A program made the position numbers and the translations under genes. The notes under the pieces were generated by a model that saw nothing but the letters and a program-made list of their open reading frames with translations, was not told where the DNA came from and did not search any database. Positions 3,019 through 30,191 of a stretch of 32,000 nt of DNA are shown here, piece by piece. The first letter of the stretch is position 1, and the number at the start of each line of letters is the position of its first letter. This DNA is from Candidatus Methanophagaceae archaeon (GTDB taxonomy: Archaea > Halobacteriota > Syntropharchaeia > Alkanophagales > Methanospirareceae), in NCBI GenBank assembly GCA_003194425.1, contig PQXB01000001.1:820444-852443 (forward strand), written 5' to 3'.

Positions 3019-4268
3019 TGGGACCTTCCATCTCCCAGCAGCTTCACATCAAATCCCGCCTTTCCCCATCTTCCCATATCTAAAATATTTCTACAATCAA
3101 CCACGTTCCGTCTTCTCATCAACCTGAATATCTCCTCCGGCTCAATCTCTTTAAATTCAGAATGATCAGTAATAATCACGATACAATCGCTACCCCCAAC
3201 CGCATCTTCCAAACTTAAAATTTCATATTCAAATGTTTTGACATAAGGGTCATATATCTTAACATTATATCCCTCATTATCAGCCACTTTTATGAACTTC
3301 AACGCAGGCGTCTCCCTCGTATCATCAACATTTCCCTTATATGCGACGCCAAAAACCGTAATCATTGGGTCTCTAACATCTTCTAACATCTCTCTTACAA
3401 TCTGCAGCACATAGTTCAGCATAGAATCGTTGATCTCTCTTGCCAGTGAAATCATCCTGCATTTGGTCGAATTCTCAGTTAAGAACCAAGGGTCAATCGC
3501 AATGCAGTGTCCTCCTACACCCGGACCTGGGTTGAGAATGTTTACCCGTGGGTGCTTGTTCGCTAATTCTATAGCCCCCCTTATATTTATCCCGCTCTCA
3601 TCTGCCATCTGTGCAAACTCGTTAGCTAAAGCAATGTTTGCATCTCTATAAGTATTCTCCATCAACTTTACAAATTCTGCTGTTCTTATGTCAGTTAAAT
3701 ACAACTTTCCCGTGACAAAAGACGAATACAAATCCCTTGCAAGTTCTCCGGATTTTTTATCAAATCCACCGATTATTCTGTCGTTGTGTATCATCTCGTA
3801 GACGGTGTTTCCAGGTATAGCCCTCTCAGGACAATGAACAAAATAAAATTCCCCTACTTTTAATCCTCTCCTCTCCAGTATAGGAATTACCAGTCTTTCA
3901 CTGGTACCTGGGGGGACCGTTGACTCAAGAATTACAAGATTCTCTTTATTCAGGTGAGGGTAAATCATCTCTGCTGCAGATCTTACATATTTCAAATCCG
4001 CAACTTTTACCGCCTTCTCCAGGGGCGTTGGAACTGCAATTAAAAATACATCCGCAGCCTCAACCTCTGTTTTAGCAACAACATTCTTTTTTGTTTTCTC
4101 AAATAAATCATCGATTTCCGGCTCATCAAATGGGCTTTCTCCTCTGTTTATCTTCTCCACAACTTTTTCACTTATGTCAACGCCAATCACTTCATACTGT
4201 TGAGCAAATAGTAACGCGGTTGGCAACCCAATGTAACCTAATCCAAGCACACAGATCTTCATCGTCAT
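3015..4268 (-). CDS. wecC: UDP-N-acetyl-D-mannosamine dehydrogenase (UDP-sugar 6-dehydrogenase family)
   Basis: 418 codons from ATG 4268. The N-terminus MTMKICVLGLGYIGLPTALLFA is a Rossmann GxGxxG. The segment ...ANKHPRVNILNPGPGVGGHCIAIDPWFL matches the catalytic-Cys block of WecC/Cap5O-type dehydrogenases. ATGA overlaps the wecB stop at 4265-4268. The 26-codon extension in the ORF track lies inside wecB and is rejected. Confidence 0.85.
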   Translation of the reverse strand: MTMKICVLGLGYIGLPTALLFAQQYEVIGVDISEKVVEKINRGESPFDEPEIDDLFEKTKKNVVAKTEVEAADVFLIAVPTPLEKAVKVADLKYVRSAAEMIYPHLNKENLVILESTVPPGTSERLVIPILERRGLKVGEFYFVHCPERAIPGNTVYEMIHNDRIIGGFDKKSGELARDLYSSFVTGKLYLTDIRTAEFVKLMENTYRDANIALANEFAQMADESGINIRGAIELANKHPRVNILNPGPGVGGHCIAIDPWFLTENSTKCRMISLAREINDSMLNYVLQIVREMLEDVRDPMITVFGVAYKGNVDDTRETPALKFIKVADNEGYNVKIYDPYVKTFEYEILSLEDAVGGSDCIVIITDHSEFKEIEPEEIFRLMRRRNVVDCRNILDMGRWGKAGFDVKLLGDGRSQ

Positions 4269-5372
4269 TGTTTCCCTCTTCCCCGCTCCTTTAAAATCTT
4301 GATTATCCGCCTCCCAGCTTCGCCGTCTCCAAAAGGATTTTTCCAATTCTTTTCTCTATTATTTATCATTAATTTAGCACATTCTAAAACTTCTTCAGGA
4401 TTTGTTCCAGCTAGGATATTCGCACCCACCTCAAGAGTTTCAGGTCTCTCTGTATTATCTCGCAAAGTAACACAAGGAACCTTCAATACGCAGGACTCTT
4501 CTTGAAGACCTCCGGAATCAGTTAAAACCAACCTTGCATTTGCCTCTAACTGTAGAAAATCCAGATAGCCTGCAGGCTTAACTAACCTTACCCCTTCTGG
4601 AATTTTTAGCCGAAACTCTTCTAACTTTTTCTCTGTTCTCGGATGAATCGGATAAATTATAACAAAGCCAAACTCTTTGTGCACTAAATCCAATCCCTTT
4701 AGAATCTGCCCTAACCTCTTTTTATCGTCTACGTTTTCTTGTCTGTGTGTAGTGACGAGTAAGAATTCCCTACTTTTTAAGTTCAATCGGTCTAAAATCC
4801 TTGATTTCTCTTTGCCTATTTCCAAATTCTGAAAGACCGCGTCTACTACTGTGTTCCCGGTAATGAAAATTTTGTTTGCGTCAATTCCTTCTTTTATTAG
4901 ATTCTCTCTCGACTTTTCAGTCGGTGCGAACAACAAATCCGAAACATGATCAGCTACAACTCTGTTTATTTCCTCTGGCATATTTCTGTCATAACTCCTT
5001 AAACCCGCCTCAATATGCCCCACTTTGATGTGCAACTTCACCGCCGCCAGAGCACCCGCCAATGTTGAGTTCGTGTCTCCGTAAACAAGAACAATCTCGG
5101 GCTTCTCTCTAACCAAAACTTTTTCAATCCGCTTCAGCCCCTCGCCTGTCTGGTAGCCGTGCGAGCCCGAGCCGACGCCGAGATAATAATCAGGCTTCGG
5201 AATCTTCAACCTTCGGAATCTTCAACTCCTCAAAGAATAGTTTTGAGAGGTTGTAGTCGTAGTGCTGCCCTGTGTGTAAGCAGACATTCTTTATTCTTCC
5301 GCTGCTCGCTTTTAAGACTGGTGCTAATTTTATGAACTGCGGTCTGTTTCCAGTTATATGCAGTATTTTCAT
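4265..5372 (-). pseudogene. wecB: UDP-N-acetylglucosamine 2-epimerase (non-hydrolysing), split by a 16-bp tandem duplication
   Basis: The N-terminal fragment 5190..5372 reads MKILHITGNRPQFIKLAPV...HTGQHYDYNLSKLFFEELKIPK. The C-terminal fragment 4265..5209 reads (TTG)KIPKPDYYLGVGSGSHGYQTGE.... Together they make a complete WecB. The span is 1108 nt; minus 16 it is 1092 nt, or 364 codons, reading ...FFEELKIPKPDYYLGVGSGSH.... Confidence 0.9.
5195..5226. repeat. Perfect 2 x 16-bp tandem duplication (cttcggaatcttcaac)
   Basis: Read directly: 5195-5210 = 5211-5226. Flanking bases differ. Confidence 0.98.
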
Positions 5373-5447
5373 TTTGTTACACCCTCACACACTTACTACA
5401 ATCCAACCCTTTTTCTCTTACATAATTCCAAAGAAAAATGATAACAT

Positions 5448-5636
5448 TCAGTACCTCTTCCTGTAAATCTCATCGTGATGTCCCAAATCGAGGAATCTAA
5501 CCATCTTACCTTCCTCTTCTATTTCAAAGACTAAAAAAAAGGACTTCTCCAAACGAACTCGCCTCAAACCCTTTAAATCATACCTTAACGGTTTGTAATG
5601 GTAGGGATTTTCTATTATCGCTTCTACACTCTTCAT
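5448..5636 (-). CDS. RelE/ParE-like toxin, unusually short (62 aa)
   Basis: The segment ...ENPYHYKPLRYDLKGLRRVRLEKSFFLVFEIEEEGKMVRFLDLGHHDEIY... matches the C-terminal two-thirds of RelE/ParE toxins (nP..g.pL.g.l.g..r.R.g.yR.iy.i.....v.i..i.hR...Y). The usual ~25-aa N-terminal strand and helix are missing. It sits directly downstream of a small acidic ORF. Confidence 0.6.
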   Translation of the reverse strand: MKSVEAIIENPYHYKPLRYDLKGLRRVRLEKSFFLVFEIEEEGKMVRFLDLGHHDEIYRKRY

Positions 5637-5638
5637 TA

Positions 5639-5878
5639 CTACATCGTAGAGTTTTTTAAATCTTCAATATTCGAGAATGTTTCGAAATCTCCTTCTTTCC
5701 TTATCTCCTCTAACTTCTCCAAATACTCCTCTTTTACCTCGTAGAACGCGTCGGTGTGCATTTCAACAAGTGTCTCAAGCATCCCCTCCAACCCTTCTAC
5801 TCTTCCCTTAAGGCTTTTCACATCTTCTAATACCTGCCTCATCATTCCCCTCTCTTCTAGTTCCATCATTTCAAACAC
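5639..5878 (-). CDS. Putative antitoxin partner (small acidic coiled-coil protein)
   Basis: 79-aa E/K-rich ORF ending 2 nt before the toxin ATG, with the junction ATG TAG TAA TGA. Its tail ...IRKEGDFETFSNIEDLKN resembles the ...FEAGRYYTLKTEKDIDKF tail of the antitoxin relic at 20621-20770. Start is GTG 5878 or ATG 5869. The function is inferred from position only. Confidence 0.45.
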   Translation of the reverse strand: MFEMMELEERGMMRQVLEDVKSLKGRVEGLEGMLETLVEMHTDAFYEVKEEYLEKLEEIRKEGDFETFSNIEDLKNSTM

Positions 5879-5901
5879 CTAATCTTATTTTGGCAGCCAC
5901 A

Positions 5902-5909
5902 TATTTAAA
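5902..5909 (-). promoter_or_regulatory. Candidate archaeal TATA box (TTTAAATA) for the RelE-like module
   Basis: On the minus strand: TTTAAATA, then 23 nt, then GTG 5878. TATA-to-start spacing fits a leaderless or very short-leader transcript. Motif-level call only. Confidence 0.3.
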
Positions 5910-5965
5910 GGATGCAAGAAAGGTAATGCCGACATCAAATGCGAATTTCTTGAGGGGTTGTATAA

Positions 5966-7180
5966 TTATCTCTTTTTATTCTTGTGTTCTCTGACAGCGC
6001 TCTCACACACCTCCGCAACTCTTCTCGCAACACTCTCCCAACTACGATTCTTTACCACATATTCTCTCCCCCTCCTTCCCATCTCTTCCCTCAACTTCTT
6101 ATCTTTCAGGAGTTTTATTATTGCTTCTGCTAATTCCTCGGGATTCTCCGGTTCAACTAATATTCCTGCGTTCTGCTCTTCTAAAATCTCAAATCCACTT
6201 ATTCTACTCGCGATCACAGGTTTTTTACAAGCCATATATTCACACAACTTTAAGGGGGAGTATCCAGATTTTAAAGGTTTTTTAGGAACAACACACACAT
6301 CACACGCATTAATATGTAGAGGGACTTTCTCATAAGGCACAGCACCAGTGAAGATAAACTTCTCGGAGACGCCAATTTGCTCACTAAGCTCTGTTAATTC
6401 TTTCCTTAAGGAACCATCACCAACCATCAAGAACCGGGTGTTAGGATAATTTCCCAATATATATGGAGCACTTCTTATAAAATAATCAATTCCCTGATAG
6501 GCAGCAAAAGTACCACTATAGCATATATAATAATAATTTTTTTCAAGATTTAGTTTCTTCCTTGCTTCTGTGATAGAGATTGGCTTAAACAACTCCGTGT
6601 TTGCTCCGTTTTGAATTTCTACCATCTTATCTTCAGGAATCCCATAATCTCTTTGGAGAGTCTCTTTCAGTCTTGATGTAACAACAATAATTTTATCGGC
6701 TCTTGGCAAAGTGAATCTCTCTATTTTGTCAATAATATGTAATGAGATGCCCTTTGCTCGCCCGGCAATTTCCATTTCGTCCACGACTATGCCATTCACT
6801 TCTTTGACCACAGGGATTTTAAAAAATTTAGCTAGGAAGTAGCCACTGTTAAATAAAGTGTGACGTATATAAGCCACATCAGGCATCGATTTCTGCCGCA
6901 TTATTACAACAAAACCAATAAGAAAAATACGAAGATGAGCCAAGAAATATAGAAGTAACCAGAATATTGGTGAAGTCTCCCCTAACCGCTCTAATATTGA
7001 TGACTTCGTCTCAACGACGATTTCCTCTTCAGATTCCGGACGATCGGTATTTAAGTATATTAAATTATGCCCTTCTTTAAGCAGCGATGTCAGCACTTCA
7101 TAAATATGAACGGATTCAGTTCCCAATCTCCTGGTTTTTAAAACACCATAATAAAAAATGTTCATTCTTTTCATCGCCAC
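5966..7180 (-). CDS. GT4-family (GT-B) glycosyltransferase
   Basis: 404 aa. The C-terminal lobe motif ...GYSPLKLCEYMACKKPVIASRISGFEILEEQNAGILVEP is an E(x7)E-type Glycos_transf_1 signature. Confidence 0.85.
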   Translation of the reverse strand: MAMKRMNIFYYGVLKTRRLGTESVHIYEVLTSLLKEGHNLIYLNTDRPESEEEIVVETKSSILERLGETSPIFWLLLYFLAHLRIFLIGFVVIMRQKSMPDVAYIRHTLFNSGYFLAKFFKIPVVKEVNGIVVDEMEIAGRAKGISLHIIDKIERFTLPRADKIIVVTSRLKETLQRDYGIPEDKMVEIQNGANTELFKPISITEARKKLNLEKNYYYICYSGTFAAYQGIDYFIRSAPYILGNYPNTRFLMVGDGSLRKELTELSEQIGVSEKFIFTGAVPYEKVPLHINACDVCVVPKKPLKSGYSPLKLCEYMACKKPVIASRISGFEILEEQNAGILVEPENPEELAEAIIKLLKDKKLREEMGRRGREYVVKNRSWESVARRVAEVCESAVREHKNKKR

Positions 7181-9541: not shown

Positions 9542-10483
9542 CTATTCACTCCCTTTCACATACCACTTAATATATCTCCTCACGCCTTCCTCAAAATCCA
9601 CTTTTGGCCACCAGCCCAGTTCCTTTTTAGCCTTCTCTGCTGAAACGGTCTTGCCCTCGAAGTCACCCGGTCTTTCTTCTTTATATTCTATCTTCACTTC
9701 CTTTACTTCCTTCACTTCCTTTCCTTCCTTCTCATCCCCTACCAACTTCTTCACCGTCTCCGCAACCTCTCTCACTGTTATCGGGCGCATTCCCTCTAAA
9801 TTGTATGTCTGGTTCTCTGCGGCGCCTTTCAGCGCGGCAACATTTCCCTCTGCCAAGTCCTCTACATAAATGAAATTCCTGTACTGCGAGCCATCGCCGA
9901 AAATCGTTAACGGTTCGCCGTTCAATGCCTTCCTGACAAATATCGCAACGACTGTTCCGCCTCTCGCTCTCGGTCCGTAGGGAATGCCATATCGCAGGAT
10001 TGTGAAATTCTGATTGTATAATCGCTTGTAGCTCTGGCAGTATAATTCCGCGGCAACCTTTGACGAAGTATATACGTGGTCTGCTTTTTCGATGTGCAAC
10101 GGTGTGCTTTCGTCTACCGCTTTTTCTGAGGACAACCCGTAGACCCAGACCGTGCTCGCGAGAATAACTCGTCCGATTTCGTTTCTCCTCGCCGCTTCCA
10201 GCACATTCGCCACACCTAAAATATTTATCTCTCCTGCTTCAACCGGATTTTTGTAGACATCGTTCACATCCGCCATCGCCGCCAGCAGATAGACCGCATC
10301 AAAATTCCCGGTTAATGCAACCGCAGTCTTCGAGAGGTCGGTAATATCTATGTAGAGGTGTCTAACATCTTCTCTGTGCGGTTTCATAATGTCAAACACC
10401 GTGACCTCGTGCTCCTGCTCGATCAGTTTATCCACGATATGCGAGCCAATAAATCCTGACCCGCCTATTACTCCTATCTTCAT
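9542..10483 (-). CDS. NAD-dependent nucleotide-sugar epimerase/dehydratase (extended SDR)
   Basis: The N-terminus MKIGVIGGSGFIGSHIVDKL is a GxxGxxG motif. YTSSKVAAE is the YxxxK catalytic motif. ...RPGDFEG...AKKELGWWP is a typical C-terminus. It carries an in-frame KEGKEVKEVKEVK low-complexity insert. Confidence 0.9.
   Translation of the reverse strand: MKIGVIGGSGFIGSHIVDKLIEQEHEVTVFDIMKPHREDVRHLYIDITDLSKTAVALTGNFDAVYLLAAMADVNDVYKNPVEAGEINILGVANVLEAARRNEIGRVILASTVWVYGLSSEKAVDESTPLHIEKADHVYTSSKVAAELYCQSYKRLYNQNFTILRYGIPYGPRARGGTVVAIFVRKALNGEPLTIFGDGSQYRNFIYVEDLAEGNVAALKGAAENQTYNLEGMRPITVREVAETVKKLVGDEKEGKEVKEVKEVKIEYKEERPGDFEGKTVSAEKAKKELGWWPKVDFEEGVRRYIKWYVKGSE
9692..9736 (-). repeat. 9-bp in-frame tandem repeat (gaag[tg][ga]aag x4-5 on the coding strand) encoding EGKEVKEVKEVK
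   Basis: Plus-strand units are cttcacttc / ctttacttc / cttcacttc / ctttccttc / cttctcatc, read directly. Confidence 0.9.
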
Positions 10484-10484
10484 T

Positions 10485-11115
10485 TTAGTTTAACACCTCC
10501 TTGAACAAAATAAATGCCTCTGCTAATTTTCTGTTACATTCCATACCTCTCATTTTAGCAAATGTTTTAAACCCTTCTTCGGAGCGAGGATTTGGATATT
10601 CCCTGGTTTCTGTCTCATAATATAACATAGCTTTTATTTTGTTGTTTAACAATTCTTCTGTTAGTTCTATATAAAGGTTAGGTGCAAAATGAATAGTTGA
10701 AGAAGGAACCTCGTATACTAATATTTTATCAATATTTCTGCATGCTACTCTACAAGCCTGATAAACTGCTCTGTGGTCTTGATTGCTGTCATTTTCGTTT
10801 GGAATATACGCTATATCTGGCTTCACCGTGGTTACCACATCCTCAATCGCTATTATACTCTTTATCAAACTTTCATCTAAATGCTCATCTCTCAATCCAC
10901 AAAAGAAATATTTCTCTATCCCAAGTAGTTCCTTAACTTTTTGTGCGCTTTTTTTGGTTTGGGCAGTATAAATATCGTCAATCTTATGACCCAAGACCCT
11001 GTTGGCAACAACATTAACAAACACTGCATCTCCCCTCTCTTTGTGCCATTGAATTGCTCCACCCGTACCTAACAACTTCATCATCTGCATGTGGAGCGAT
11101 TATTAAAACTTTCAT
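10485..11115 (-). pseudogene. PIG-L/LmbE-family N-acetyl-sugar deacetylase with a +1 frameshift near the N-terminus
   Basis: ATG 11115 (ATGA overlap with the upstream stop) opens MKVLIIAPHADDEV, the PIG-L AHPDDE motif. That frame stops after ~36 codons. The track ORF 10485..11090 continues LGTGGAIQWHKERGDAVFVNVV...SNQDHRAVYQACRVA in another frame. The span is 631 nt = 3n+1. Removing one G at ~11073 gives APHADDEVLGTGGAI. Confidence 0.8.
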
Positions 11116-11915
11116 ACTAATCCCCTTTTGTACCCTTTCAATGCTTCAACTTTTTTGGTTACAGTGATATTTCCTCTCTCAGCGAATACTCTTTGGGCTT
11201 CCTTCTTCATCCTAAATAATAAATTTTCACACCACTCCTTGCTTTGAACATATAATGTGGATGACATATAATGTTCCATAAACGTCTCTACATCTGGAAA
11301 AACTATTGGATTCACAAATAGCTCAAGAGATAAATTGCAGAATATCTTTTTTGCTACCGGTAGGACCTCTTTTCTCAAATCAGATGAACCGGGTTGGTAT
11401 TGTGGTGGAATATATTTCGCAACTCGATAGTGCATCTCTACCATCTCTCTCGAGGTATCATCAGGAGGACTTGCAATTAAAAAACGCCCATATGGCTTTA
11501 ATACCTGTTTAATCTCTGTCATTACTTCTTTCTCATTCATATAATATATGGCAAAATTGCAGGTCACAACATCAAAAGTATTCTCTTTGAAAGGGATATT
11601 CTCACCATTCTCTCTTATTAGAACAAAATCTTTACCTGGAGCAAATTCTTTTATCCTTTTCTTTGCCTCTCTCAGCAGAGACTCTGATAGATCTATACCT
11701 ACTATGTTATTTGTAACTTGGGAATACGCAAGGATTTGACTGCCGTTTCCGCAACCTATGTCAAGAACTTTCTCTCCTTGTTGGAGTTTGAGTTTCTTCA
11801 ATAGCCATTGATTAAAATCATTAGTGCCGTATTTTTCTATTAGATTTATTCTCGATACCAAATCCTTTTTATCCTTATAAAGCTCGCTTCCATCTCGGCG
11901 TTTTTTATCTAACAT
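11112..11915 (-). CDS. Class I SAM-dependent methyltransferase
   Basis: Motif I is EKVLDIGCGNGSQIL. The likely start is ATG 11915, preceded by GGAGG. The longer track start (MQEAGLLAG...) lies inside the aminotransferase gene. Confidence 0.85.
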   Translation of the reverse strand: MLDKKRRDGSELYKDKKDLVSRINLIEKYGTNDFNQWLLKKLKLQQGEKVLDIGCGNGSQILAYSQVTNNIVGIDLSESLLREAKKRIKEFAPGKDFVLIRENGENIPFKENTFDVVTCNFAIYYMNEKEVMTEIKQVLKPYGRFLIASPPDDTSREMVEMHYRVAKYIPPQYQPGSSDLRKEVLPVAKKIFCNLSLELFVNPIVFPDVETFMEHYMSSTLYVQSKEWCENLLFRMKKEAQRVFAERGNITVTKKVEALKGYKRGLV

Positions 11916-13039
11916 AGTGCCTCCTTCAAAGAGTCCACAACATACTTCGCCTGTTCCTCGGTCATCGTTGCAAACACCGGCAAGCAGACCTGCCTCTTGC
12001 AAACATCCTCAGCAACCGGAAACACCCCCTCTGTAAAACCATACAAATCCTTGAATATCGGCTGCAAGTGGCAGGGCAGTTCGTAAACCTCTCCGCTTAA
12101 ACCTACCTCATATTTCTCTTTAAGTTCTCTTTTAAGCTCCGCCCTCTCAATCTCAATGCCCTCGTCCAGCATAACCACATACTTGTAGTAGTTCGACTTC
12201 ACTTCAGGAGGGATTTTTATCGGCGTTACACCCCCTCCTCCCCTCTCATTCAGTTCTTCATCGTATATTTTTGCGATCTTTCTTCTATCCGCGATGAACG
12301 CCTCAAGCCGAGCAAACTGCGACAGACCTACCGCGGCGTGAATCTCACTCAGCCGCCAGTTGTAGCCCATCTCTGTATGCACATTGCCAAAGAATCCTGC
12401 TTTGCCCTGGTCTCTGAAGACTAACGCCCGCTCGTAAATCTTTTTGTCGTCTGTCGTGATCATTCCACCCTCGCCGGATGTCATCACTTTCGTTGGGTAA
12501 AAGGAGAACGCGGCTGCCTCTCCGAACCCTCCTGCCATTTTTCCGTCCAGCGTGCTCCCGTGTGCGTGCGCGGCATCCTCGATTAGAAAAAGATTGTGGT
12601 CTTCGCATATTTCCTGAATCTCTTTTATCTGCGGTGGCACGACGCCTCCAATATGCACAACGATAACACCTTTTGTATCTTTTTTTATATTCTCCTTAAC
12701 GCTCTCAGGGTCAATGCAAAGGTTCTCGGTAACATCCGAAAATATGACTTCTCCACCTGCGTGTACGACCGATGCAGGCGTCGCAAAGAAGGTGTTCGTT
12801 GGCACAATCACCGAATGCCCTTTCACATCTAACGCCCTCAAAGGTATTTCCAACGCACTCGTTCCGCTGTTCACCGCAACTGCATATTTCGTGCCCACAT
12901 ACGCTGCGAATCGCTCCTCAAATTCTCTCGTGTATTTCCCAAGCGTCAGTTGCCCGCTTTCGAGAATCTCGTCTACTTGCTTCAACAAATCCTTCCTTTC
13001 TTCCTCAGGAAAGTATATCTTCGCTGCTGGTATTTTCAT
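11909..13039 (-). CDS. DegT/DnrJ/EryC1/StrS-family PLP-dependent sugar aminotransferase
   Basis: MKIPAAKIYFPEEERKDLLKQVDEILESGQLTLGKYTREFEERFA...NSGTSALE...DAAHAHG...SFYPTKVMTSGEGG is the canonical family layout. Start ATG 13039 is preferred over ATG 13093, whose 18 extra codons are the 15-bp polypurine repeat. Confidence 0.9.
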   Translation of the reverse strand: MKIPAAKIYFPEEERKDLLKQVDEILESGQLTLGKYTREFEERFAAYVGTKYAVAVNSGTSALEIPLRALDVKGHSVIVPTNTFFATPASVVHAGGEVIFSDVTENLCIDPESVKENIKKDTKGVIVVHIGGVVPPQIKEIQEICEDHNLFLIEDAAHAHGSTLDGKMAGGFGEAAAFSFYPTKVMTSGEGGMITTDDKKIYERALVFRDQGKAGFFGNVHTEMGYNWRLSEIHAAVGLSQFARLEAFIADRRKIAKIYDEELNERGGGGVTPIKIPPEVKSNYYKYVVMLDEGIEIERAELKRELKEKYEVGLSGEVYELPCHLQPIFKDLYGFTEGVFPVAEDVCKRQVCLPVFATMTEEQAKYVVDSLKEALC

Positions 13040-13511
13040 TTTCTCTCCTCTCTCTTCCTCTCCTCTCTCTTTCTCTACTCTCTCTTTCGCCATTCTCCAA
13101 CTCTAAAACCGCCGCTATTTCTTCTATAAAATCATAAAAGTCTTGAAGGTTCTCTTTTAATATCTCAAATCCAAGTTCATCATCTATTTTCCCATATCTG
13201 TGCACGACTATGTTTCTAAAGCCTTTCATCAGCCTGATCTTCTCTTTTATTTCCTCACTCAAAATATTGTTCTTAACCAGATTCTCTACGATCTCTTCAT
13301 CGTCACCTGGAATTCCAAGTTCAAGGTCTGTGTTAATGACGGCACAAATATCAAAAACATCTTCGATTGCAAATTCTGTCCTCTTGTAGATTCCGTCTTT
13401 TAACAATCCCATCTCTGAGAATTCCTCAAAAGTTTCTGGCAAATGCTCCTCTACCAACCCAACACACTCCTCTATTTCTTTTATCTTTGTTCTGATAACC
13501 GCCCTCCTCAT
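13005..13511 (-). CDS. HEPN-domain (DUF86) toxin of an MNT-HEPN pair
   Basis: The Rx4H motif is present in ...MKGFRNIVVHRYGKID. ATGA overlaps the MNT stop at 13508-13511. The C-terminal tail (...ENGERESRERERRGRERRENENTSSEDILS) reads through the polypurine repeat and overlaps the aminotransferase start, so it is probably not native. Confidence 0.85.
   Translation of the reverse strand: MRRAVIRTKIKEIEECVGLVEEHLPETFEEFSEMGLLKDGIYKRTEFAIEDVFDICAVINTDLELGIPGDDEEIVENLVKNNILSEEIKEKIRLMKGFRNIVVHRYGKIDDELGFEILKENLQDFYDFIEEIAAVLELENGERESRERERRGRERRENENTSSEDILS
13016..13083. repeat. Direct repeat copy A (68 bp) flanking the MNT-HEPN cassette
   Basis: tatcttcgctgctggtattttcattttctctcctctctcttcctctcctctctct... 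is identical to copy B for the first 55 nt. It contains the ATG and first 8 codons (MKIPAAKI) plus 15-bp pyrimidine-strand units. Confidence 0.95.
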
Positions 13512-13924
13512 TTTATCGCCTTTTCCCTGATATAATCGTAAAATCTGTATTTAAACGCTTCAAAATCCTTTATCGTCTCGGTAGCCGTTTCATATAAAAA
13601 CCGCTTATCCTCGCAGTAAATTTCTCTTCCCTTCAAGACCTCAACTCTTACATAAAGAGGGAGTTGCTGAAAAATCTGAATATCATAAACATCATCGAAG
13701 AGTTCTGAAAGGAGTTTTAACCTGAATCTTGAGGACTCCTTTTGTCCTCCCTCATAATATATGCAGAAGTCAATATCTGAGCCCTCAACCATCTGCCCCC
13801 TTGCTGCTGAGCCATACAAGAAGATGAATTTCACCTTCTCAAATCCCGCTACATTCTTTATTCTTTGCAGCATAATCTTACTATCTTTTTCAAGGTGGCG
13901 TATCTTCGCTGCTGGTATTTTCAT
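13508..13924 (-). CDS. Minimal nucleotidyltransferase (MNT) antitoxin of an MNT-HEPN pair
   Basis: ...FIFLYGSAARGQMVEGSDIDFCIY is the GSx10-12[DE]xD pol-beta NTase motif. The first 8 codons, MKIPAAKI, are identical to the aminotransferase start and are part of a duplicated segment. The native start may be the internal MLQRIKN (13873). Confidence 0.85.
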   Translation of the reverse strand: MKIPAAKIRHLEKDSKIMLQRIKNVAGFEKVKFIFLYGSAARGQMVEGSDIDFCIYYEGGQKESSRFRLKLLSELFDDVYDIQIFQQLPLYVRVEVLKGREIYCEDKRFLYETATETIKDFEAFKYRFYDYIREKAIK

Positions 13925-13983
13925 TTTCTCTCCTCTCTCTTCCTCTCCTCTCTCTTCCTCTCCTCTCTCTTTCTCTATTCTCT
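13901..13983. repeat. Direct repeat copy B (83 bp; one extra 15-bp unit)
   Basis: Same sequence as copy A plus an extra tcctctcctctctct unit, then 13 nt with 1 mismatch. It contains the stop codon of the upstream methyltransferase (13975-13977). Confidence 0.95.
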
Positions 13984-14676
13984 AACCTTTTCCGCTTCGA
14001 CATAATACAAATGACACCTCTTCGTCGCATAAGTATCTAACAACTTATTAACCTCCCTTGCAAACCAAACAGGAATAAACTTCCCTTTAAAACCCCTGAA
14101 TAAACTAATTGGCGTGACCAGCCCTACTCCTCGCCTGTAAACCGCCCGAAATCCCGCCTCTTCTACGAGGTGCTCGAATTGTTCGGGCGTGTAATCGAAG
14201 ATGAAATCATTTTGCCAGCCTCTAAGTTTTACATAAGTACTATGAAGAGAATTTCTATTTGACATATTAATCAAAATTAATGGAGATACCTTAACTATTT
14301 TTGATAAGAAGTTCACTAATTCCGTTTCATTAAGTAAAGGGGCAAACTCAATGCAGGTAACTAAGTCGAACGTTTCGTCCAAATCAACATTGCGAACATC
14401 CTCTGCTATAACCTTAACACTGGGAAACTTTATTTTTAACTCGGTAACGAACTCTTCGTTAAACTCTACTGCCGTAACATCGTAGCCCTTCTCCAGAAGA
14501 TAAGAGACGATTCTGCCGTGTCCAGAGCCGATGTCCAACGCCTTCTTTCCTTCGCCCGGCGGTATTCTCTCTTTAACCAGTTCGTTCAAACTCTCAAAGA
14601 CCACATTCCTGATGTCCTTCGGATTCTCCCACCACTCAGAGTAATATTTCTTTATCTCTTTCGCTTCAACATCCAT
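13975..14676 (-). CDS. Class I SAM-dependent methyltransferase
   Basis: Motif I is KKALDIGSGHGRIVSYLLEKGYDVTAVEF. 233 aa and intact. Confidence 0.85.
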   Translation of the reverse strand: MDVEAKEIKKYYSEWWENPKDIRNVVFESLNELVKERIPPGEGKKALDIGSGHGRIVSYLLEKGYDVTAVEFNEEFVTELKIKFPSVKVIAEDVRNVDLDETFDLVTCIEFAPLLNETELVNFLSKIVKVSPLILINMSNRNSLHSTYVKLRGWQNDFIFDYTPEQFEHLVEEAGFRAVYRRGVGLVTPISLFRGFKGKFIPVWFAREVNKLLDTYATKRCHLYYVEAEKVRE

Positions 14677-14683
14677 TCCCTTT

Positions 14684-15862
14684 TTACCTCATCAATTCAT
14701 CTAACGAATCCCTGCACTTCCTTACCATCACCTCATAAGAATATTCCTCTTCTATAAGATTCCTCGCATTCTTCACGATTTCCTCAAGGTTTGGATGCTC
14801 CAATGCTCGTATAACATTTTTCGCAATGCATTCTGGCGAATTATCTTCTAAAATAAAACCCGTTTCTCCGTCTTTTATTACATCTGGTATTGATCCAACC
14901 GGTGTTGCGAGCACGACTGCACCACAAGCCATTCCCTCTTGGACAATTGCTGGAAGTCCTTCTGAATACGAAGGCAGTAGAATCAATTTCAACTCATTCA
15001 GATAATTTGGGAGCTCGTTATGAGGAATCCATCCTGTAAATTTAACTTTATCATAAGATCCATTGTTCTTTAATTCCTCATTTATTTCATCAAATAACGG
15101 CCCGTCGCCGCCAATTAAAAATTCTAAATCACTCTTCTCTTTTAATATCAACGGAATCGCCTTTGCAAAATTTAACACCCCTTTCTCTATCGATAAACGA
15201 CTAATGTATCCAATTAAGTTCTTTTTGTTTTTTAAATCTTCCTTTATTTTGAAATTATCAAGATCTATGTACATTGCACCGTTAATTGAAATTTTATGCC
15301 TATATCTATTTAGTCCTGTGAACGAAATAATGTTCTTTGTTTCTATATCAATTCGATCTGCAAGAGAGAAATTAATCAGTTCTAAAATTCTAAAAATATG
15401 CCGCATAATTCTACCTATGCCAAATAACATCTTATCATATTGTAGTTCAGCACCTTTTGACGCAGGTCCAGTTACAAATAAAACTGTTTTTTTCCCCAGT
15501 AACTTCGCAGCTAGCATTGGTAATAGATCCAAGCGAGTTCCTATATAAAAGTATACAATATCAATATCGTTTGATATTTTGCTTATATTTAAAGAGATTC
15601 TCAACTGAATTAATATCTCTTTGAAAATTTTACTCAATATTAACTCGTTTATTTTTCTATTATATTTTATCTCTATTATTTTTATGTGTGTATTATTGGT
15701 ATTATTATAAAAAAACTTCCCTGTAATTGCAAATAATTTGATAGACGATGGAAGGAGATAATCTATAAAATTTCCCAAGATTGTCTGTACGACAGGGGTA
15801 CCAGTGGGATGTGTTACCACACAGATGTTGGGTTTATTTTTCGAAGTTTTCGTCTTCTTCAT
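14684..15862 (-). CDS. GT4-family glycosyltransferase
   Basis: ...LLPSYSEGLPAIVQEGMACGAVVLATPVGSIPDVIKDGETGFILE. ATGA overlaps the upstream stop at 15859-15862. Confidence 0.85.
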   Translation of the reverse strand: MKKTKTSKNKPNICVVTHPTGTPVVQTILGNFIDYLLPSSIKLFAITGKFFYNNTNNTHIKIIEIKYNRKINELILSKIFKEILIQLRISLNISKISNDIDIVYFYIGTRLDLLPMLAAKLLGKKTVLFVTGPASKGAELQYDKMLFGIGRIMRHIFRILELINFSLADRIDIETKNIISFTGLNRYRHKISINGAMYIDLDNFKIKEDLKNKKNLIGYISRLSIEKGVLNFAKAIPLILKEKSDLEFLIGGDGPLFDEINEELKNNGSYDKVKFTGWIPHNELPNYLNELKLILLPSYSEGLPAIVQEGMACGAVVLATPVGSIPDVIKDGETGFILEDNSPECIAKNVIRALEHPNLEEIVKNARNLIEEEYSYEVMVRKCRDSLDELMR

Positions 15863-16673: not shown

Positions 16674-17033
16674 CTAACGGCAAGCCTCGCCCTTCAGGGC
16701 GGGGGTCCGTGACACATTTTTATAGACGCGATATTCCCTCATATCAGATAAGAATCCAAAACATTTTACAAAATCACGCGCATCAAGATTCAACGGGATT
16801 CCGAAATCCTCAATCATTACCATAAACTTTCGTTTAGATACTCCAGCGATCTCTGCCGCTTTCCCTAAAGATACAGCGCCCTCTGTATATTCCCTCATCG
16901 CCTTTCTTACTCTATATTCATTTATGATCTTCATGATAGACATATATGCCAAATCCTTCATCGAGATGTCAATCTCCTTCGCTATCTCCTTCAACCATTT
17001 GTCATCTTCCGCTTTAAGATCTATTTTCAGCAT
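16674..17033 (-). CDS. UPF0175-family antitoxin-like protein (HTH)
   Basis: ...EYTEGAVSLGKAAEIAGVSKRKFMVMIEDFGIPL matches the UPF0175 core (g.iSlgkAAelaG.s..eF...l...gIp). It overlaps the PIN gene by 20 nt. Confidence 0.65.
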   Translation of the reverse strand: MLKIDLKAEDDKWLKEIAKEIDISMKDLAYMSIMKIINEYRVRKAMREYTEGAVSLGKAAEIAGVSKRKFMVMIEDFGIPLNLDARDFVKCFGFLSDMREYRVYKNVSRTPALKGEACR

Positions 17034-17523
17034 TTTTTAATACCTCCTTCGCTTTATTTATCACCTCATCTCTTAAAACCCTTCTCAACTTCTCTAATAA
17101 TTTATAAGCCATATCTTTATTAATCTTTTCTATCAGGCATAGATCGACTACAATGTTTGCTGAAGAGATATATTTTAGATTAAAACGATTCATCACCTGA
17201 TATACCTTTGAATCATCTATCAGCACAAAGCAATCTTTTTTCTCTATCGCATAGGCAATAATCTCTATTTCACCAGAAGATATGCTAATTTCATGTTTAA
17301 TCTTTTCTTGTATCTTTTTTGGTGTGATAATCTGGATAACTCCTTTATTCGAAACCCTCTCGAATAAATTTGCATCCTCTGCAAACCCCTTTCCTTCCAA
17401 TATCTCATTACTAACCTTTGGTGTCACACATACATAAAAATTCTCAATCAAATAGGTGGTAAGATCCACCCTAAACAAGTTTATCCATGAAGATGTATCG
17501 ATTATAATCTTTGGCTTTTGCAT
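17014..17523 (-). CDS. PIN-like (DUF3368-type) nuclease toxin
   Basis: The N-terminus is IIIDTSSWINLFRV. The segments ...SSGEIEIIAYAIEKKDCFVLIDDSKVYQVMNRFNLKYISSANIVVDL match the GEaE.I.lA...(x)lDD..aR pattern of PIN-like partners of UPF0175. Confidence 0.7.
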   Translation of the reverse strand: MQKPKIIIDTSSWINLFRVDLTTYLIENFYVCVTPKVSNEILEGKGFAEDANLFERVSNKGVIQIITPKKIQEKIKHEISISSGEIEIIAYAIEKKDCFVLIDDSKVYQVMNRFNLKYISSANIVVDLCLIEKINKDMAYKLLEKLRRVLRDEVINKAKEVLKNAENRS

Positions 17524-17552: not shown

Positions 17553-17690
17553 TTTATCTTTGTTCTGATAATCGCCTTCCTTATTCCCGATTTCCTCATT
17601 TTATCGCCTTTTCTCTAACCTGATATAATCATAAAACCTGTATTTAAACGCTTCAAAACCCTTTATCGTCTCAGTAGCCGTTTCATATTA
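17553..17690 (-). pseudogene. Relic of a second MNT-HEPN module (only the gene junction survives)
   Basis: About 135 nt align, with indels, to 13473-13600. The relic encodes YETATETIKGFEAFKYRFYDYIRLEKRR* (intact MNT end: YETATETIKDFEAFKYRFYDYIREKAIK*). It then encodes MRKSGIRKAIIRTKIKRAL* (intact HEPN start: MRRAVIRTKIKEIEE). Confidence 0.75.
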
Positions 17691-17717: not shown

Positions 17718-19478
17718 TCATTCCACCTCCTTCAAATAATACTCCCTCCTCCGCCTCTCGACAACCTCACCGATCAAATACTTTATAAGCCTCGGATTCA
17801 ACATCTTCACCATCTGCACACCCGCACTTCTTCTAAACCTCCGTTCACCCATCTTCTCTAAAATCTCTTTAGCCACCGTTGACGCACTGTATCGGTGTGG
17901 CATCTTGAACTCATTTTCCAGAACTCGTCCTGCCTCTCTTTTCTCGTAGCCCAATCTCCCCAAAACATACTCAAGTTTTTCAGGAATTACACCGTGTGCC
18001 GCTTCGTGAAGAGAGGCGGTAATTGAAACGAACGATTTTGCAGCCGCAGTGATTTTGTTTTCCTTCAATACCGCAACGAACTCGTCAATCTCGCCCTCGT
18101 TCATCCTCGCGAGCGTGTAGAGAAAAGAGTAATATTCGCCAAGCAGATACAAATATTCTGTGAGTGAATGAATAATCACTATTCCCAAATCGAGTTCAGG
18201 CGTCGGCGTCTTAACCCTTACCTCCGCCCCTGACTGTATTTTTCTGTTAATTACGCGTCCTCTGAACTTGTCCTTGTCCATATAAATGAGATGACTCAAC
18301 TCCAACTGCCACTGCAGGTCTATAATTATCTTCGCATCTCGGTCAATGAGGTCGGGGATTGTCGAGCCGCTCACTACTGCTCCTTCTTTGTCTTTGTAGC
18401 CTGCCTCGTGAAAGATTTCGTAGGATTTCTTGTAGACGTCGTAATCGTCCAGAATTAGAAGGTCAACATCGCCCGGAACCGCAGCGTAAGGTCTGATCGT
18501 CTTGAACACGACATATTCGATGCCCGAAGCATCAAGAGTTCTCGAAATTTTTCCCACCCCTTCCAAAAACTTTAAATACCTCTCCTGCTCTTCATCGTAT
18601 TTATCTCTTAGTTTATCCAATCTTCCCTGCTGCTTGAGTGCCTTCAGGTAGAGCAGCGAGATTTTGTTCTTGACTGCGAGGTCGTAGAGTTCAAGAGACT
18701 CGGTACCGTTAACGAAAGGCGGTTTGTTTGGTAGAAAAGGAGAGCCTATCGTTTTTAGAAGTTTCATTGTTTGGCTCGAGTTTTTAGTGTTTTTAGATTC
18801 AAATACCTCTTCTCGCACCCGCTCTTTCAGTTCTGCTAAATCTTTACTCCCGTCCAATCTCTTCATTTTATATTCCTTACCAATCTCTAAATAAACCTTC
18901 CTCCGCTCCTTTAAATAGCTTAGGGACGGCGTGTCTTCTTTTCTCTGAAACGCCGTCTCCTCTGGCAAATCAATCAGAAAAACCAAGTCCGGCTCAGGTG
19001 CAATCCGAAAACAGTTCTCAATCAAACCCCTCAAATGGCTAAAATCAGCCTCCGCCTCCTCTCTCGGAATATCATTCATCACCGTGTCATAAACATACCT
19101 GTCGCAAACAACCGTCCTTCCGAGCCTCTTCGGAAGAATTATCTTGGCAAGGAGCTGGAGAGAATAGTCGAACAGCAAATATTTCTGATAAACTGACGAC
19201 ACTAACGAAAACCTCCTCACCGCATCCCTCTTGGCACTTGAATAATCTTCGTACTCTCTTATGTTCCGCCCGTGCAGAAACAGAAACTTCCCAATCTCCA
19301 ATGCAGGTCTCGCCAGAAAGGGCTTGTATCTGCCGTAAACATAATTGCATTTCACCCCCCTCCTCTTCATCTCCGCAGCCAAAAACCTTGCCAGCGTCGT
19401 CTTGCCAGCACCGTCCATTCCAGTAAAACAAATCAACTTAGCCTTTGCCCTTCTCATTTTCCTTGACGAGTTTTTCAT
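17718..19478 (-). CDS. Fusion protein: thymidylate-kinase-like P-loop domain + NTP_transf_5-like (uncharacterised pol-beta superfamily) nucleotidyltransferase domain
   Basis: 586 aa. The N-terminal domain has KLICFTGMDGAGKTTLARFL (P-loop) ...DRYVYDT...FLIDLPEETAFQR. The C-terminal domain has ...VVFKTIRPYAAVPGDVDLLILDD...VVERRRREYY. The two halves align with the separate genes 24519..25025 and 22409..23503. Start is ATG 19478 or ATG 19457. Confidence 0.8.
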   Translation of the reverse strand: MKNSSRKMRRAKAKLICFTGMDGAGKTTLARFLAAEMKRRGVKCNYVYGRYKPFLARPALEIGKFLFLHGRNIREYEDYSSAKRDAVRRFSLVSSVYQKYLLFDYSLQLLAKIILPKRLGRTVVCDRYVYDTVMNDIPREEAEADFSHLRGLIENCFRIAPEPDLVFLIDLPEETAFQRKEDTPSLSYLKERRKVYLEIGKEYKMKRLDGSKDLAELKERVREEVFESKNTKNSSQTMKLLKTIGSPFLPNKPPFVNGTESLELYDLAVKNKISLLYLKALKQQGRLDKLRDKYDEEQERYLKFLEGVGKISRTLDASGIEYVVFKTIRPYAAVPGDVDLLILDDYDVYKKSYEIFHEAGYKDKEGAVVSGSTIPDLIDRDAKIIIDLQWQLELSHLIYMDKDKFRGRVINRKIQSGAEVRVKTPTPELDLGIVIIHSLTEYLYLLGEYYSFLYTLARMNEGEIDEFVAVLKENKITAAAKSFVSITASLHEAAHGVIPEKLEYVLGRLGYEKREAGRVLENEFKMPHRYSASTVAKEILEKMGERRFRRSAGVQMVKMLNPRLIKYLIGEVVERRRREYYLKEVE

Positions 19479-20770: not shown

Positions 20771-21955
20771 TTAAATATTCAAAACCTTCTCATAAACCTT
20801 CTCCGTCTCTTCTGCAATCCGCTCCCACGAATAATCTTCAACTTTCTTCCTGCCATTTCTCCCCATCCTTCTTCTTACTTCCTCGTTCTCCAATAAATAA
20901 ATTATCGCTTCTGCCAACGCTTCCTCGTCCTTTGGCGGAACTAACACACCATTCTCTCCATTTTTTACCACATCAGGAACACCGCCAATCTTAGACGCCA
21001 CAATCGGGACGCTACAAGCCATCGCCTCTAAATTCACGATTCCAAAGATTTCATGTTTCATCACCGAAGGCAAACAGAAAACATCTGCCGAGTTGTAATA
21101 AAACGGTTTCAAACGCTCCTCGACAAATCCTGCAAATTTTACATATTTTCCAAGACCTAACTTTCTCGACAATGCCTCAAGTTCTTCTTTCATTCTACCA
21201 CTTCCAACGAAGACTAATTTAGTATTTGGAATGTTTTTTATTATTTTTGGCATCGCTTTCAACAAAACATCAGGTCCCTTGTGCGGGCTGAGTGTTCCAA
21301 CAAATAATATAATCCTGCTGTCAATAGGCAAATCTAACTTCTCCCTGCATTCTTCTTTTGAATAATGAAGGTCAAAATCCTCTATATTTATCCCGTTTGG
21401 AATTACAACAATCTTATCTCTGTATTTCCCTAAAAACTGTGATTCATTGATGTAATATTCTGAAGGCGAGATTATGACATCTGCATAAGATAAAATTTTG
21501 TCAAGAAGAAATTTGTTGTAAAAATAAACGCTAATTCTTCGAGCAAAACCACCCATATTTTCTTCTAAGTCCCCATGATATGTAACCACAAGCGGAAGTT
21601 TCTTCTTTTTTGCACATCTTAGCCCTGCAATGTCTCCTATAGGAACAGAAATATGAGTATGGATGAGGTCAGTAGGATATTTTACAGAATTTTTTAGAAG
21701 TCCAAATGAAAATCTTCCGCTTGCAACGCTGAGATTGGTTCCGTATCTGTATATTTTTATATTTTTGTGTTCTTCAATTTCATCTTTAGAATCGGCGGAT
21801 GTAGTAAAAATCGATATTTCGTGTCCTTCGTGTCCTTTTTCTGCTAAATAAGATGCTAAATTCTCTGCAGCAGCTTCGGCACCACGAACAGTATATTTTT
21901 CATCAACTATTTTGCTTCTGTAGGGAAAATGAGTGATAAAATAATTTATTTTCAT
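20771..21955 (-). CDS. GT4-family glycosyltransferase
   Basis: 394 aa. ...CLPSVMKHEIFGIVNLEAMACSVPIVASKIGGVPDVVKNGENGVLVPP. Confidence 0.85.
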   Translation of the reverse strand: MKINYFITHFPYRSKIVDEKYTVRGAEAAAENLASYLAEKGHEGHEISIFTTSADSKDEIEEHKNIKIYRYGTNLSVASGRFSFGLLKNSVKYPTDLIHTHISVPIGDIAGLRCAKKKKLPLVVTYHGDLEENMGGFARRISVYFYNKFLLDKILSYADVIISPSEYYINESQFLGKYRDKIVVIPNGINIEDFDLHYSKEECREKLDLPIDSRIILFVGTLSPHKGPDVLLKAMPKIIKNIPNTKLVFVGSGRMKEELEALSRKLGLGKYVKFAGFVEERLKPFYYNSADVFCLPSVMKHEIFGIVNLEAMACSVPIVASKIGGVPDVVKNGENGVLVPPKDEEALAEAIIYLLENEEVRRRMGRNGRKKVEDYSWERIAEETEKVYEKVLNI

Positions 21956-22377
21956 ATTCCCTCTTCATAAACTTTTTCAACCAAACAAACTATCTTTCCC
22001 CAATCATACCATTTTGCGCTTTCAATACATTTCCTTTTCATTTCTCTTTTCCTATTCAATGTTACCAATATTCCTTTCCTAATTTCTTTTTCTGAAAGCT
22101 CACATACAATCCCATTCTCATTTCTTATAAAATCACATACTGCATTCCTTTTATGATTCACTGTAACAACCGGCAATCCACATGCATTCGCCTCTAACGC
22201 AACAATCCCAAATCCTTCTCTTGTCGAAGGCAGGATAAATATCTCAGATGACTTCATATATGAGATCACATCATCATAATCTTCTAAAAAGCCTACAAAC
22301 TTAATGTTATCCTCTAATCTCAAATCATAAACAGCACCAGAAAGAAGTTTTATCAACTTCACCGTTCCATCCCTCAC
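21952..22377 (-). pseudogene. 5'-truncated GT4 glycosyltransferase (C-terminal ~140 aa only)
   Basis: ...FILPSTREGFGIVALEANACGLPVVTV... is the C-lobe of a GT4 enzyme. The frame is closed by a stop at 22384-22386 and opens only with GTG 22377. The ~220-aa N-terminal lobe is absent. It still has an ATGA overlap with the downstream GT4 gene. Confidence 0.7.
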
Positions 22378-25025: not shown

Positions 25026-25174
25026 ATTATTCTTCGGATTCAATACTTGGACGTGGCAACATAAAGTTAATCCGCTTTGCAGGTATTTGAAACATGAAGG
25101 CTATATTGAAAAGAACGTTCAAATCTAACATCTCTCCCACTGTTCCAGGATTCTTTGCTCCTCCCTTCTTCTTT

Positions 25175-30056: not shown

Positions 30057-30119
30057 TTCCTTCGTCCGTTTTGTATTACTTTTTAATTAATTTTATTATT
30101 TAACTACGCTTGGTTTAAA

Positions 30120-30191
30120 CTAAAGTAATGTAATCTAAAGTAATGTAATCTAAAGTAATGTAATCTAAAAGGTAATCTAAAGCAATGTAAT
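30120..30191 (+). repeat. 15-bp tandem array (ctaaagtaatgtaat x3 perfect, plus a 12-nt and a 15-nt degenerate unit) ending on the rnp3 start codon
   Basis: Perfect units are 30120-30134, 30135-30149 and 30150-30164. Then come ctaaaaggtaat (30165-30176) and ctaaagcaatgtaat (30177-30191). The rnp3 ATG is 30190-30192. Confidence 0.97.

Follow-up and report, generated by a model that had tools for sequence, protein, structure and literature searches.

Analysis of a 32,000-nucleotide (nt) stretch of genomic DNA (hereafter the window) from an ANME-1 archaeon (Candidatus Methanophagaceae archaeon) established that a two-gene toxin-antitoxin cassette, composed of MntA (an MNT nucleotidyltransferase, the predicted antitoxin) and HepT (a HEPN RNase, the predicted toxin), has been inserted within a glycan-biosynthesis operon, where it is bracketed by two direct repeats that each contain the 5′ end of the adjoining DegT/DnrJ/EryC1-type aminotransferase gene. 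Both cassette genes are chimeric, and sites with and without the cassette were recovered from the same metagenomes. To judge from sequence comparison, the cassette on balance probably moves by host homologous recombination through this captured gene end, as a Campbell-type crossover or by gene conversion, in a reversible process for which no dedicated recombinase would be required.

Structure of the insertion

Self-BLAST of the window, followed by alignment, located the promoter-proximal copy of the repeat (copy B) at 13901-13986 and the promoter-distal copy (copy A) at 13016-13101, both on the minus strand, with 81 of 86 positions identical (94.2%; E = 1e-31). The alignment was gapless and the copies equal in length, a perfect core of 56 nt (13016-13071 and 13901-13956) being accompanied by five substitutions, at 13072, 13077, 13089, 13091 and 13098, all located in the distal 30 nt. 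The original prediction, made from the letters of the sequence alone, had found the repeat in the right place but had drawn it at 13016-13083 and 13901-13983, short of its true extent, which takes in the methyltransferase stop codon; the identical stretch that it gave as 55 nt is the 56-nt core, and the extra 15-bp unit that it assigned to copy B was the product of a gapped-alignment choice (68 versus 83 bp), both copies in fact holding three units.

Read along the coding strand, each copy comprises the end of the upstream methyltransferase gene, an all-purine spacer, a Shine-Dalgarno (SD) sequence, an ATG and the first eight codons of the aminotransferase (MKIPAAKI), the last three of these elements being as originally described. 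The three 15-nt units (GAGAGAGGAGAGGAA) lie at 13925-13969 in copy B and at 13040-13084 in copy A, and copy B includes a 53-nt all-purine tract at 13924-13976. The unit is found nowhere else in the window, and its number differs among population alleles. A 30-nt probe placed across the spacer and the ATG occurred exactly twice in the window, against an expectation of zero from shuffled sequences.

The MntA open reading frame (ORF) of 138 amino acids (aa; 13508-13924, minus strand; Pfam Polbeta 9.1e-15, NTP_transf_2 1.6e-10) carries the GSX10DXD motif (GSAARGQMVEGSDID) and overlaps by 4 nt (ATGA) the HepT ORF of 168 aa (13005-13511, minus strand; Pfam HepT-like 3.2e-27 over residues 13-132), in which the RX4HXY motif takes the form RNIVVHRY. 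The ATG and eight aminotransferase codons of copy B now start MntA, codons 1-8 of the two genes being the same, and those of copy A start the intact aminotransferase. Nucleotide comparison with the aminotransferase assigned a total of 22 MntA codons to this derived leader (13859-13924, minus strand). The N-terminus of MntA is foreign, because MNT homologues without the leader are typically ~128 aa in length and start M(T/H)xx(V/I)EKGIEKIKN. The direction of copying, from aminotransferase to MntA, was indicated by the aminotransferase N-terminus, M(K/Q/N)(I/V)PAAKI.FPEEDR, which is conserved across bacterial and archaeal orthologues (Dehalococcoidia, Methanoperedens and Thermoplasmata). Annotations of the MntA start differ, JGI and ENA calling the 138-aa protein from the borrowed ATG and NCBI a 121-aa protein from the internal Met18 (PXF51943.1).

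At the opposite end of the cassette, alignment with 15 homologues, all of which stop at 138-143 aa (after ...ILEN..), indicated that the native stop codon of HepT is gone. Copy A, with a further 11 nt of the aminotransferase gene, supplies the codons for residues ~137-168, and translation now ends at a TGA (13005-13007) that is 35 nt into the aminotransferase ORF; a HepT allele of 163 aa has one 15-nt unit fewer. The aminotransferase ORF itself (11909-13039, minus strand) has its own SD sequence, ATG and codons in copy A and, since the duplication leaves it with an intact start region, the operon is unbroken. The original prediction had thus correctly described an MNT gene opening with the N-terminus and 5′ region of the aminotransferase, an aminotransferase that keeps an intact copy, and a HEPN gene that reads through copy A for want of its native stop.

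Filled and empty sites

The original prediction had suggested a search for an empty site in which the methyltransferase stop is followed by one copy of the repeat and the aminotransferase, and this arrangement was found on three occasions. In a genome scan, the related metagenome-assembled genome (MAG) 'Methanosarcinales archaeon B64_G16' from Guaymas (L005), the aminotransferase of which is 85% identical in aa sequence, proved to have a methyltransferase, a 24-nt spacer and then ATGAAAATACCAGCAGCGAAGATATAC..., with no toxin-antitoxin genes between. A metagenome scan for the 24-nt core of the repeat yielded 13 contigs. In L067 and L068 the methyltransferase leads directly to the aminotransferase through purine spacer alleles the same as those of the window lineage, the aminotransferase gene being 99.3-99.4% identical to that of the window, with a single variable position among its first 400 nt, and the final ~260 nt of the methyltransferase gene 93-98% identical.

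The Guaymas metagenomes Ga0116200 and Ga0164311 yielded both empty (L067, L068) and filled (L065, L057) alleles, and both kinds are also present in the Guaymas data sets ERZ27227318-22. The filled structure was present in at least seven independent assemblies, including L001-L004 and the MAG from which the window is drawn, and is therefore not an assembly artefact. The existence of empty sites shows the insertion to be polymorphic and probably scarlessly reversible, and the product expected from recombination between the two copies, a scarless excision as originally proposed, is the empty allele observed. In one filled allele (L004) the left copy of the repeat has the spacer of L067 and the right copy that of L068, a mixture indicating that the copies exchange with alleles circulating in the population.

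Other differences were recorded among the same alleles. The filled alleles L057 and L065 have a 2.5-kb deletion relative to window positions 10395-12923, by which the aminotransferase is cut at codon 39 and the next methyltransferase and the PIG-L gene are lost. Relative to 10502-11920, L002 and L067 have a B12-binding radical SAM gene in place of that methyltransferase and PIG-L, together with an aminotransferase variant of 381 aa, and the agreement of L001 with the window is lost upstream of 15252. Within this one species-level population, exchange of modules has given the glycan operon a mosaic make-up.

Age of the captured leader

The identity profile along the repeat (25/30, then 56/56, then 23/42) does not end with the perfect core, decayed homology to the aminotransferase continuing for a further 42 nt. 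MntA codons 9-22 (RHLEKDSKIMLQRI) match codons 9-22 of the window aminotransferase at 23 of 42 nt, those of the L005 allele at 24 of 42, and those of a diverged aminotransferase stub in contig L066 at 25 of 42; by way of background, 12 of the ~32,000 window positions match the aminotransferase segment at 23/42, the equivalent figure ranging from 2 to 12 across the three comparisons. As read from these alignments, codons 9-22 are an older, decayed copy of the corresponding aminotransferase codons, and the repeat, with its perfect core next to the decayed 42-nt leader, is not a fresh scar.

Sister cassettes lend depth to this picture. At the nucleotide level, those containing the MNT proteins P0002 and P0003 (74% aa identity) have aminotransferase sequence for their first 13-14 codons and, in the absence of an internal Met, must use the leader ATG as their start. 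The P0003-type cassette is also bracketed, by a 56-74-nt repeat of the aminotransferase 5′ end, but its HepT keeps the native stop and the right copy of its repeat is a 19-codon stub only. The cassette family thus appears to carry an old captured leader of about 22 codons, the proximal part of which has in the window been refreshed against the neighbouring gene, and such refreshment points to homologous recombination, whether by Campbell crossover of a circle or by gene conversion. The cassette DNA is 85-86% identical between two lineages, compared with 80% for the aminotransferase, 71% for the methyltransferase and 67% for the upstream GT1 gene; that the cassette is less diverged than the host genes is mild evidence of horizontal movement.

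Two other contigs have toxin-antitoxin-like pairs beside aminotransferase stubs. In L063 a RelE/ParE-like pair (280-1041) lies directly upstream of a truncated 5′ stub of ~43 codons. In L066 the same position is taken by a putative pair of short genes (81 and 73 aa; 3764-4429, minus strand), here in front of a stub of ~22 codons (MKIPAAKIHHLEED...) that resembles the decayed leader of the window MntA. A proposed methyltransferase origin for the 'EWER' C-terminal end of the sister HepT was dropped, the leaderless cassettes P0132 and P0142 having a like tail.

Recurrence at other loci

At least four other ANME-1-related (Methanophagales-type) toxin-antitoxin blocks were found to be bracketed by copies of a neighbouring gene end, 66-1354 nt in length. 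In L075 a DUF2283 pair lies between ~66-nt copies of the 3′ end of a radical SAM gene, the repeat giving the MNT P0004 a false N-terminus. In L044 a HicAB pair and an AbrB/MazF-like pair each lie between 70-220-nt copies of a dehydrogenase 3′ end. An identical MNT (P0029) occurs in two contexts, L078 and L079, with 88-229-nt copies of the 5′ end of a DUF362 gene; the 1418-nt unit common to both ends within the repeats, and HepT again enters the downstream copy. The presence of the same protein in two contexts, with boundaries inside the repeats, indicates that related cassettes relocate. In L051 a 2.4-kb multi-cassette block is enclosed by 1354-nt repeats ending within a GT2 gene. The same scan found almost no such repeats at control loci from other phyla, a comparison biased by the fact that the ANME loci were reached through toxin-antitoxin genes.

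The L044 array (3300-5990; MAG Methanophagales archaeon GLR107) uses copies of a ~164-nt unit, consisting of the final ~25 codons of a dehydrogenase-like gene and ~90 nt downstream, to separate the HicAB from the AbrB/MazF-like pair; it also holds a stray epimerase 5′ fragment, and lies just upstream of a DegT aminotransferase. A related multi-cassette block, L052 (ENA ERZ27227320 k141_618826, 3106 bp), encodes the MNT P0002 with its leader, and has pieces of GT2 genes and small ORFs besides. Its identical 141-nt ends correspond to the assembler k-mer (k = 141), and therefore denote a closed loop of 2965 bp that a circle or a tandem repeat would produce alike; it is the one lead towards an excised circular form.

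Elsewhere in the window, 136 nt are left of a second MNT-HepT pair (17553-17688, minus strand), taking in the MNT 3′ end and the HepT 5′ start and 81% identical to 13480-13595. This remnant is immediately upstream of a PIN-like ORF (169 aa, no Pfam match; 17014-17523, minus strand) and a UPF0175 antitoxin-like ORF (16674-17033, minus strand). It would seem that a toxin-antitoxin insertion of later date cut short an older MNT-HepT cassette here. Around the PIN-like/UPF0175 cassette no flanking repeat of 16 nt or more was found, and bracketing is thus not universal.

Mechanism and alternatives

The process favoured here would make the captured 22-codon 5′ segment of the aminotransferase a portable homology arm of the cassette. 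The cassette would be integrated when the homologous recombination machinery of the host acted on this leader and the 5′ end of the aminotransferase gene in the chromosome, either through a Campbell-type single crossover of a circular molecule consisting of one repeat plus the cassette, or through an equivalent gene conversion; recombination between the two resultant copies would delete it scarlessly, and no dedicated recombinase would take part at either step. The junction expected in a circular or tandem intermediate would run from the HepT 3′ end, ...GCGGTTTTAGAGTTGGAGAAT, through the spacer to ATGAAAATACCAGCAGCGAAGATACGCCACCTTG at the MntA 5′ end, with one repeat between. Having neither a start region nor a stop of its own, the cassette would depend upon the left copy, by way of the aminotransferase SD sequence and ATG, for translation of MntA, and upon read-through of the right copy for completion of HepT.

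Several observations weigh against this account. No circular junction or tandem form of the cassette was seen in the assembled contigs, and at 95% identity or above the cassette was present at only one locus in the genome and metagenome scans and look-ups, so that re-integration is put forward as a proposal. The Campbell-type insertion scar of the original prediction stands as an insertion; for the circle and single crossover that it invoked, no circle junction, integrase or second location was found. On the upstream side of about 14163, the methyltransferase sequence of the empty alleles L067 and L068 becomes that of a divergent allele (83-86%), and for this reason these contigs do not qualify as isogenic products of excision. 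The two-age profile is accounted for just as well if the cassette was inserted once, long ago, and its repeats have since undergone intrachromosomal gene conversion; with the leader present in diverged sisters too, the data suit a fusion of greater age, renewed by gene conversion, no less than they suit Campbell integration in the recent past. A neighbour-joining tree of the MNT core, intended to decide between one and several leader captures, left the leader-bearing proteins ungrouped and was too poorly resolved to be used. The recurrence loci were reached by way of toxin-antitoxin and aminotransferase homologues, a route which biases their frequency. Finally, the account does not reach back to the first fusion, which truncated both cassette genes in frame.

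The best-surviving alternative, which we regard as possible but rather unlikely, is a single old illegitimate event that produced a target duplication of ~130 nt and both in-frame fusions, and was thereafter followed by losses only and never by re-integration. Such an event could have arisen from a microhomology-mediated template switch during replication or from fill-in of a widely staggered break; vertical inheritance would then have followed, with the copies homogenised by intrachromosomal gene conversion and empty sites generated only by deletion between them. The native end of HepT, TTAGAGAATGG, resembles the methyltransferase end, TTAGAGAATAG, and so offers a possible microhomology. Homopurine tracts may stall replication by forming H-DNA, and the 53-nt tract of copy B could have acted in this manner. 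The restriction of the cassette to one locus, the uniform length (138 aa) and comparable junction of all leader-bearing MNTs, and a divergence between lineages (MNT 77%, HepT 83% aa identity) within the range of the host genes (50-85%) are all as this account would have them. It is less easily reconciled with cassette nucleotides that are less diverged (85-86%) than the flanking genes (67-80%), or with the identical P0029 in two contexts and its unit boundaries within the repeats, and each of the five or more independent blocks, whose bracketing repeats range from 66 to 1354 nt, would call for a rare event of its own.

Integration by a site-specific recombinase acting in trans, integron-like or a tyrosine or serine integrase supplied by the genome, a virus or a plasmid, would make the repeats attL and attR, and is considered improbable. 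The architecture is att-like, in that the element restores the end of its target gene, and the L044 array, with at least three repeat copies between different toxin-antitoxin pairs, looks integron-like; integrons have also been reported in archaeal MAGs. However, no integrase or transposase domain was detected in window ORFs of at least 110 aa, and no recombinase gene was present in the window or beside the other examples. From locus to locus the repeats derive from host gene ends that are unrelated to one another and differ greatly in length; this wide range, and the fact that no core is shared and no hairpin or inverted repeat is present, argue against both a transposase and an attC-type recombinase. 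Neither strand of either copy formed a hairpin (minimum free energy (MFE) 0 kcal/mol, no better than shuffled sequences), a result that led to rejection of an attC-type cassette. Terminal inverted repeats were absent from the cassette ends, and an Rfam scan of 12500-14500 returned chance-level matches only. The 24-nt core had no match among the 2.9 million viral contigs of IMG/VR, which argues against a viral carrier. Transposition was likewise rejected, there being no inverted repeats, no transposase in the window and a duplication of 86 nt here but 66-1354 nt elsewhere; the original argument, that repeats of this length cannot be the target-site duplication of a transposase, holds, and their length is also too variable for one.

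That the similarity is due to chance, reflects some generic repeat of intergenic DNA or was introduced during assembly can be dismissed as highly improbable. The purine-rich tandem units are of low complexity and variable in number, and one related contig (L077, in which an MNT is fused to a mid-methyltransferase fragment) has a poly-G run, may be chimeric and was left out. Against this, the self-comparison gave E = 1e-31 and shuffles predicted no match, the unit occurs nowhere else in the window, the core contains unique coding sequence, and the assemblies sharing the structure, at least seven in number, came from different pipelines.

Host homologous recombination through a captured gene end may also have a wider bearing. 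It is tentatively suggested, as a rather doubtful extension, that ANME-1 toxin-antitoxin cassettes form a recombinase-free, integron-like mobile gene pool, each with its own captured host gene end. That end would serve two roles, as the homology arm for Campbell-type integration and as a ready-made translation start or stop, and repeated rounds would build cassette arrays separated by host gene-end copies inside cell-surface-glycan operons.

The surrounding operon

The insertion site lies within a single-strand operon of ~29 kb for the biosynthesis of cell-surface sugars in this methane-oxidising ANME-1 archaeon, and exact-sequence look-up identified the MAG genes of the locus in GenBank as PXF51582-PXF51584. 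In the direction of transcription, on the minus strand, the order is GT1 glycosyltransferase (14684-15862), S-adenosylmethionine-dependent methyltransferase, MNT, HEPN/HepT, DegT aminotransferase, second methyltransferase and PIG-L deacetylase. The first methyltransferase (233 aa; 13975-14676, minus strand; Pfam Methyltransf_25/11/23; PXF51583.1), taken from the ORF list, is the upstream neighbour of the insertion, its final codons and stop TAG (13975-13977) lying inside copy B. The intact target gene encodes an aminotransferase of 376 aa (MKIPAAKIYFPEEE...; Pfam DegT_DnrJ_EryC1 5e-115), for which an exact look-up matched no record. Other members of the cluster within the window include UDP-glucose dehydrogenase, a 2-epimerase, several GT1 and GT2 enzymes, radical SAM proteins, a flippase and a CDP-alcohol transferase, and the cluster closes with archaeal RNase P subunits.

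Further irregularities were noted along the window. A flippase-like Polysacc_synt gene is split into two ORFs (2191-3018 and 1686-2225, minus strand) by a perfect 28-nt tandem duplication at 2183-2238, and removal of one copy in silico restored a single ORF of 434 aa; either the gene was inactivated by this mutation not long ago, or the duplication turns glycan export on and off reversibly. Gene fragments comprise a 141-aa GT1 C-terminal half (21952-22377) adjoining a full GT1 gene (20771-21955), and a 174-aa thymidylate-kinase-like ORF (24519-25043) which has a 50-nt repeat (82%) in common with a 586-aa gene at 17718-19478. An RNase P p30-like ORF (30190-30945, plus strand) has tandem repeats at and within it (30116-30191 and 30541-30596), namely a 15-nt unit repeated 5.3 times (TAATCTAAAGTAATG) and a perfect 18-nt purine unit repeated 3.1 times (GGGAGGGGAAAAGGGAAA).

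Comparison with known systems

The question addressed by this locus is how two-gene toxin-antitoxin modules move without mobility genes of their own. It provides a clean natural case, with filled and empty alleles in one population, breakpoints at base level, a borrowed start region and a two-age footprint, and it demonstrates insertion in mid-operon without breakage of that operon. The chimeric proteins created can mislead gene callers, as the differing NCBI and JGI starts for MntA attest. The same architecture around other toxin-antitoxin families offers a testable model, in which captured host gene ends act as homology arms; if true, a mobile cassette pool would be a general answer to the spread of 'immobile' toxin-antitoxin modules. 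An enrichment of toxin-antitoxin systems is known for ANME genomes (bioRxiv 10.1101/2024.05.23.595608). The literature searched contained no description of archaeal toxin-antitoxin cassettes bracketed by duplicated host gene ends, which is not proof of novelty.

In gene content the cassette resembles the type VII HepT/MntA systems, having the MNT gene followed by the HEPN gene with a 4-nt overlap, the domains PF18765/PF01909 and PF01934, and the two motifs, GSX10DXD (MntA) and RX4HXY (HepT), defined in PMC7641770. In such systems MntA polyadenylylates HepT and so neutralises its RNase toxicity, an activity which is putative for the pair in the window, where the leader on MntA or the tail on HepT might alter it. 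Many close homologues occur in Methanophagales, Syntropharchaeales and Methanoperedenaceae. By way of contrast, the window MntA has 22 foreign N-terminal codons from the aminotransferase, HepT has a charged tail of ~30 residues that comes from the duplicated intergenic spacer and overlaps the next gene, and the cassette is without a promoter or start region of its own.

Transposons, casposons and CRISPR repeat duplication likewise leave a duplicated target on both sides of an insert. Those known are, however, short and of fixed length (2-15 bp, or one repeat unit for CRISPR), whereas those described here are variable (66-1354 nt) and have no terminal inverted repeats, transposase or Cas1 nearby.

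Integron gene cassettes, including the toxin-antitoxin cassettes of chromosomal superintegrons, offer another parallel (PMC11023631, PMC8191803). Such cassettes are also small, promoterless and oriented with an upstream promoter, form repeat-separated arrays comparable with that of L044, carry toxin-antitoxin cargo and have circular intermediates, which are here postulated. They differ in that the locus has no attC hairpin, and no IntI or attI within the 32-kb window, and in that its repeats copy whatever host gene end adjoins instead of forming a dedicated recombination site.

In the insertion-duplication ('pop-in/pop-out') procedure used in archaeal and bacterial genetics, a non-replicating circular DNA enters the chromosome by a single crossover. 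This process predicts the same homology-insert-homology product and its reversal by a second crossover; unlike it, the present case is natural, has only ~86-130 nt of homology and would serve a selfish cassette.

A likeness is also evident with Campbell-type integrative elements that have an att site overlapping the end of a gene and bring their own copy to replace it, such as the tRNA-targeting elements of archaea and bacteria, and phage 21 and e14 at icd. The features in common are flanking direct repeats, a repeat that is part of the target gene, an intact target, empty alleles with one copy and scarless excision. The insert in the window differs in its small size (0.8 kb) and lack of an integrase, in that the duplicated end is a 5′ end whose SD sequence and ATG are used for translation of the inserted gene, and in a repeat length that varies widely between examples, the enzymology probably being that of general homologous recombination. 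On the evidence of these comparisons, the locus is best described as an apparent Campbell-type insertion-duplication applied to a recombinase-less toxin-antitoxin cassette with a borrowed start region.

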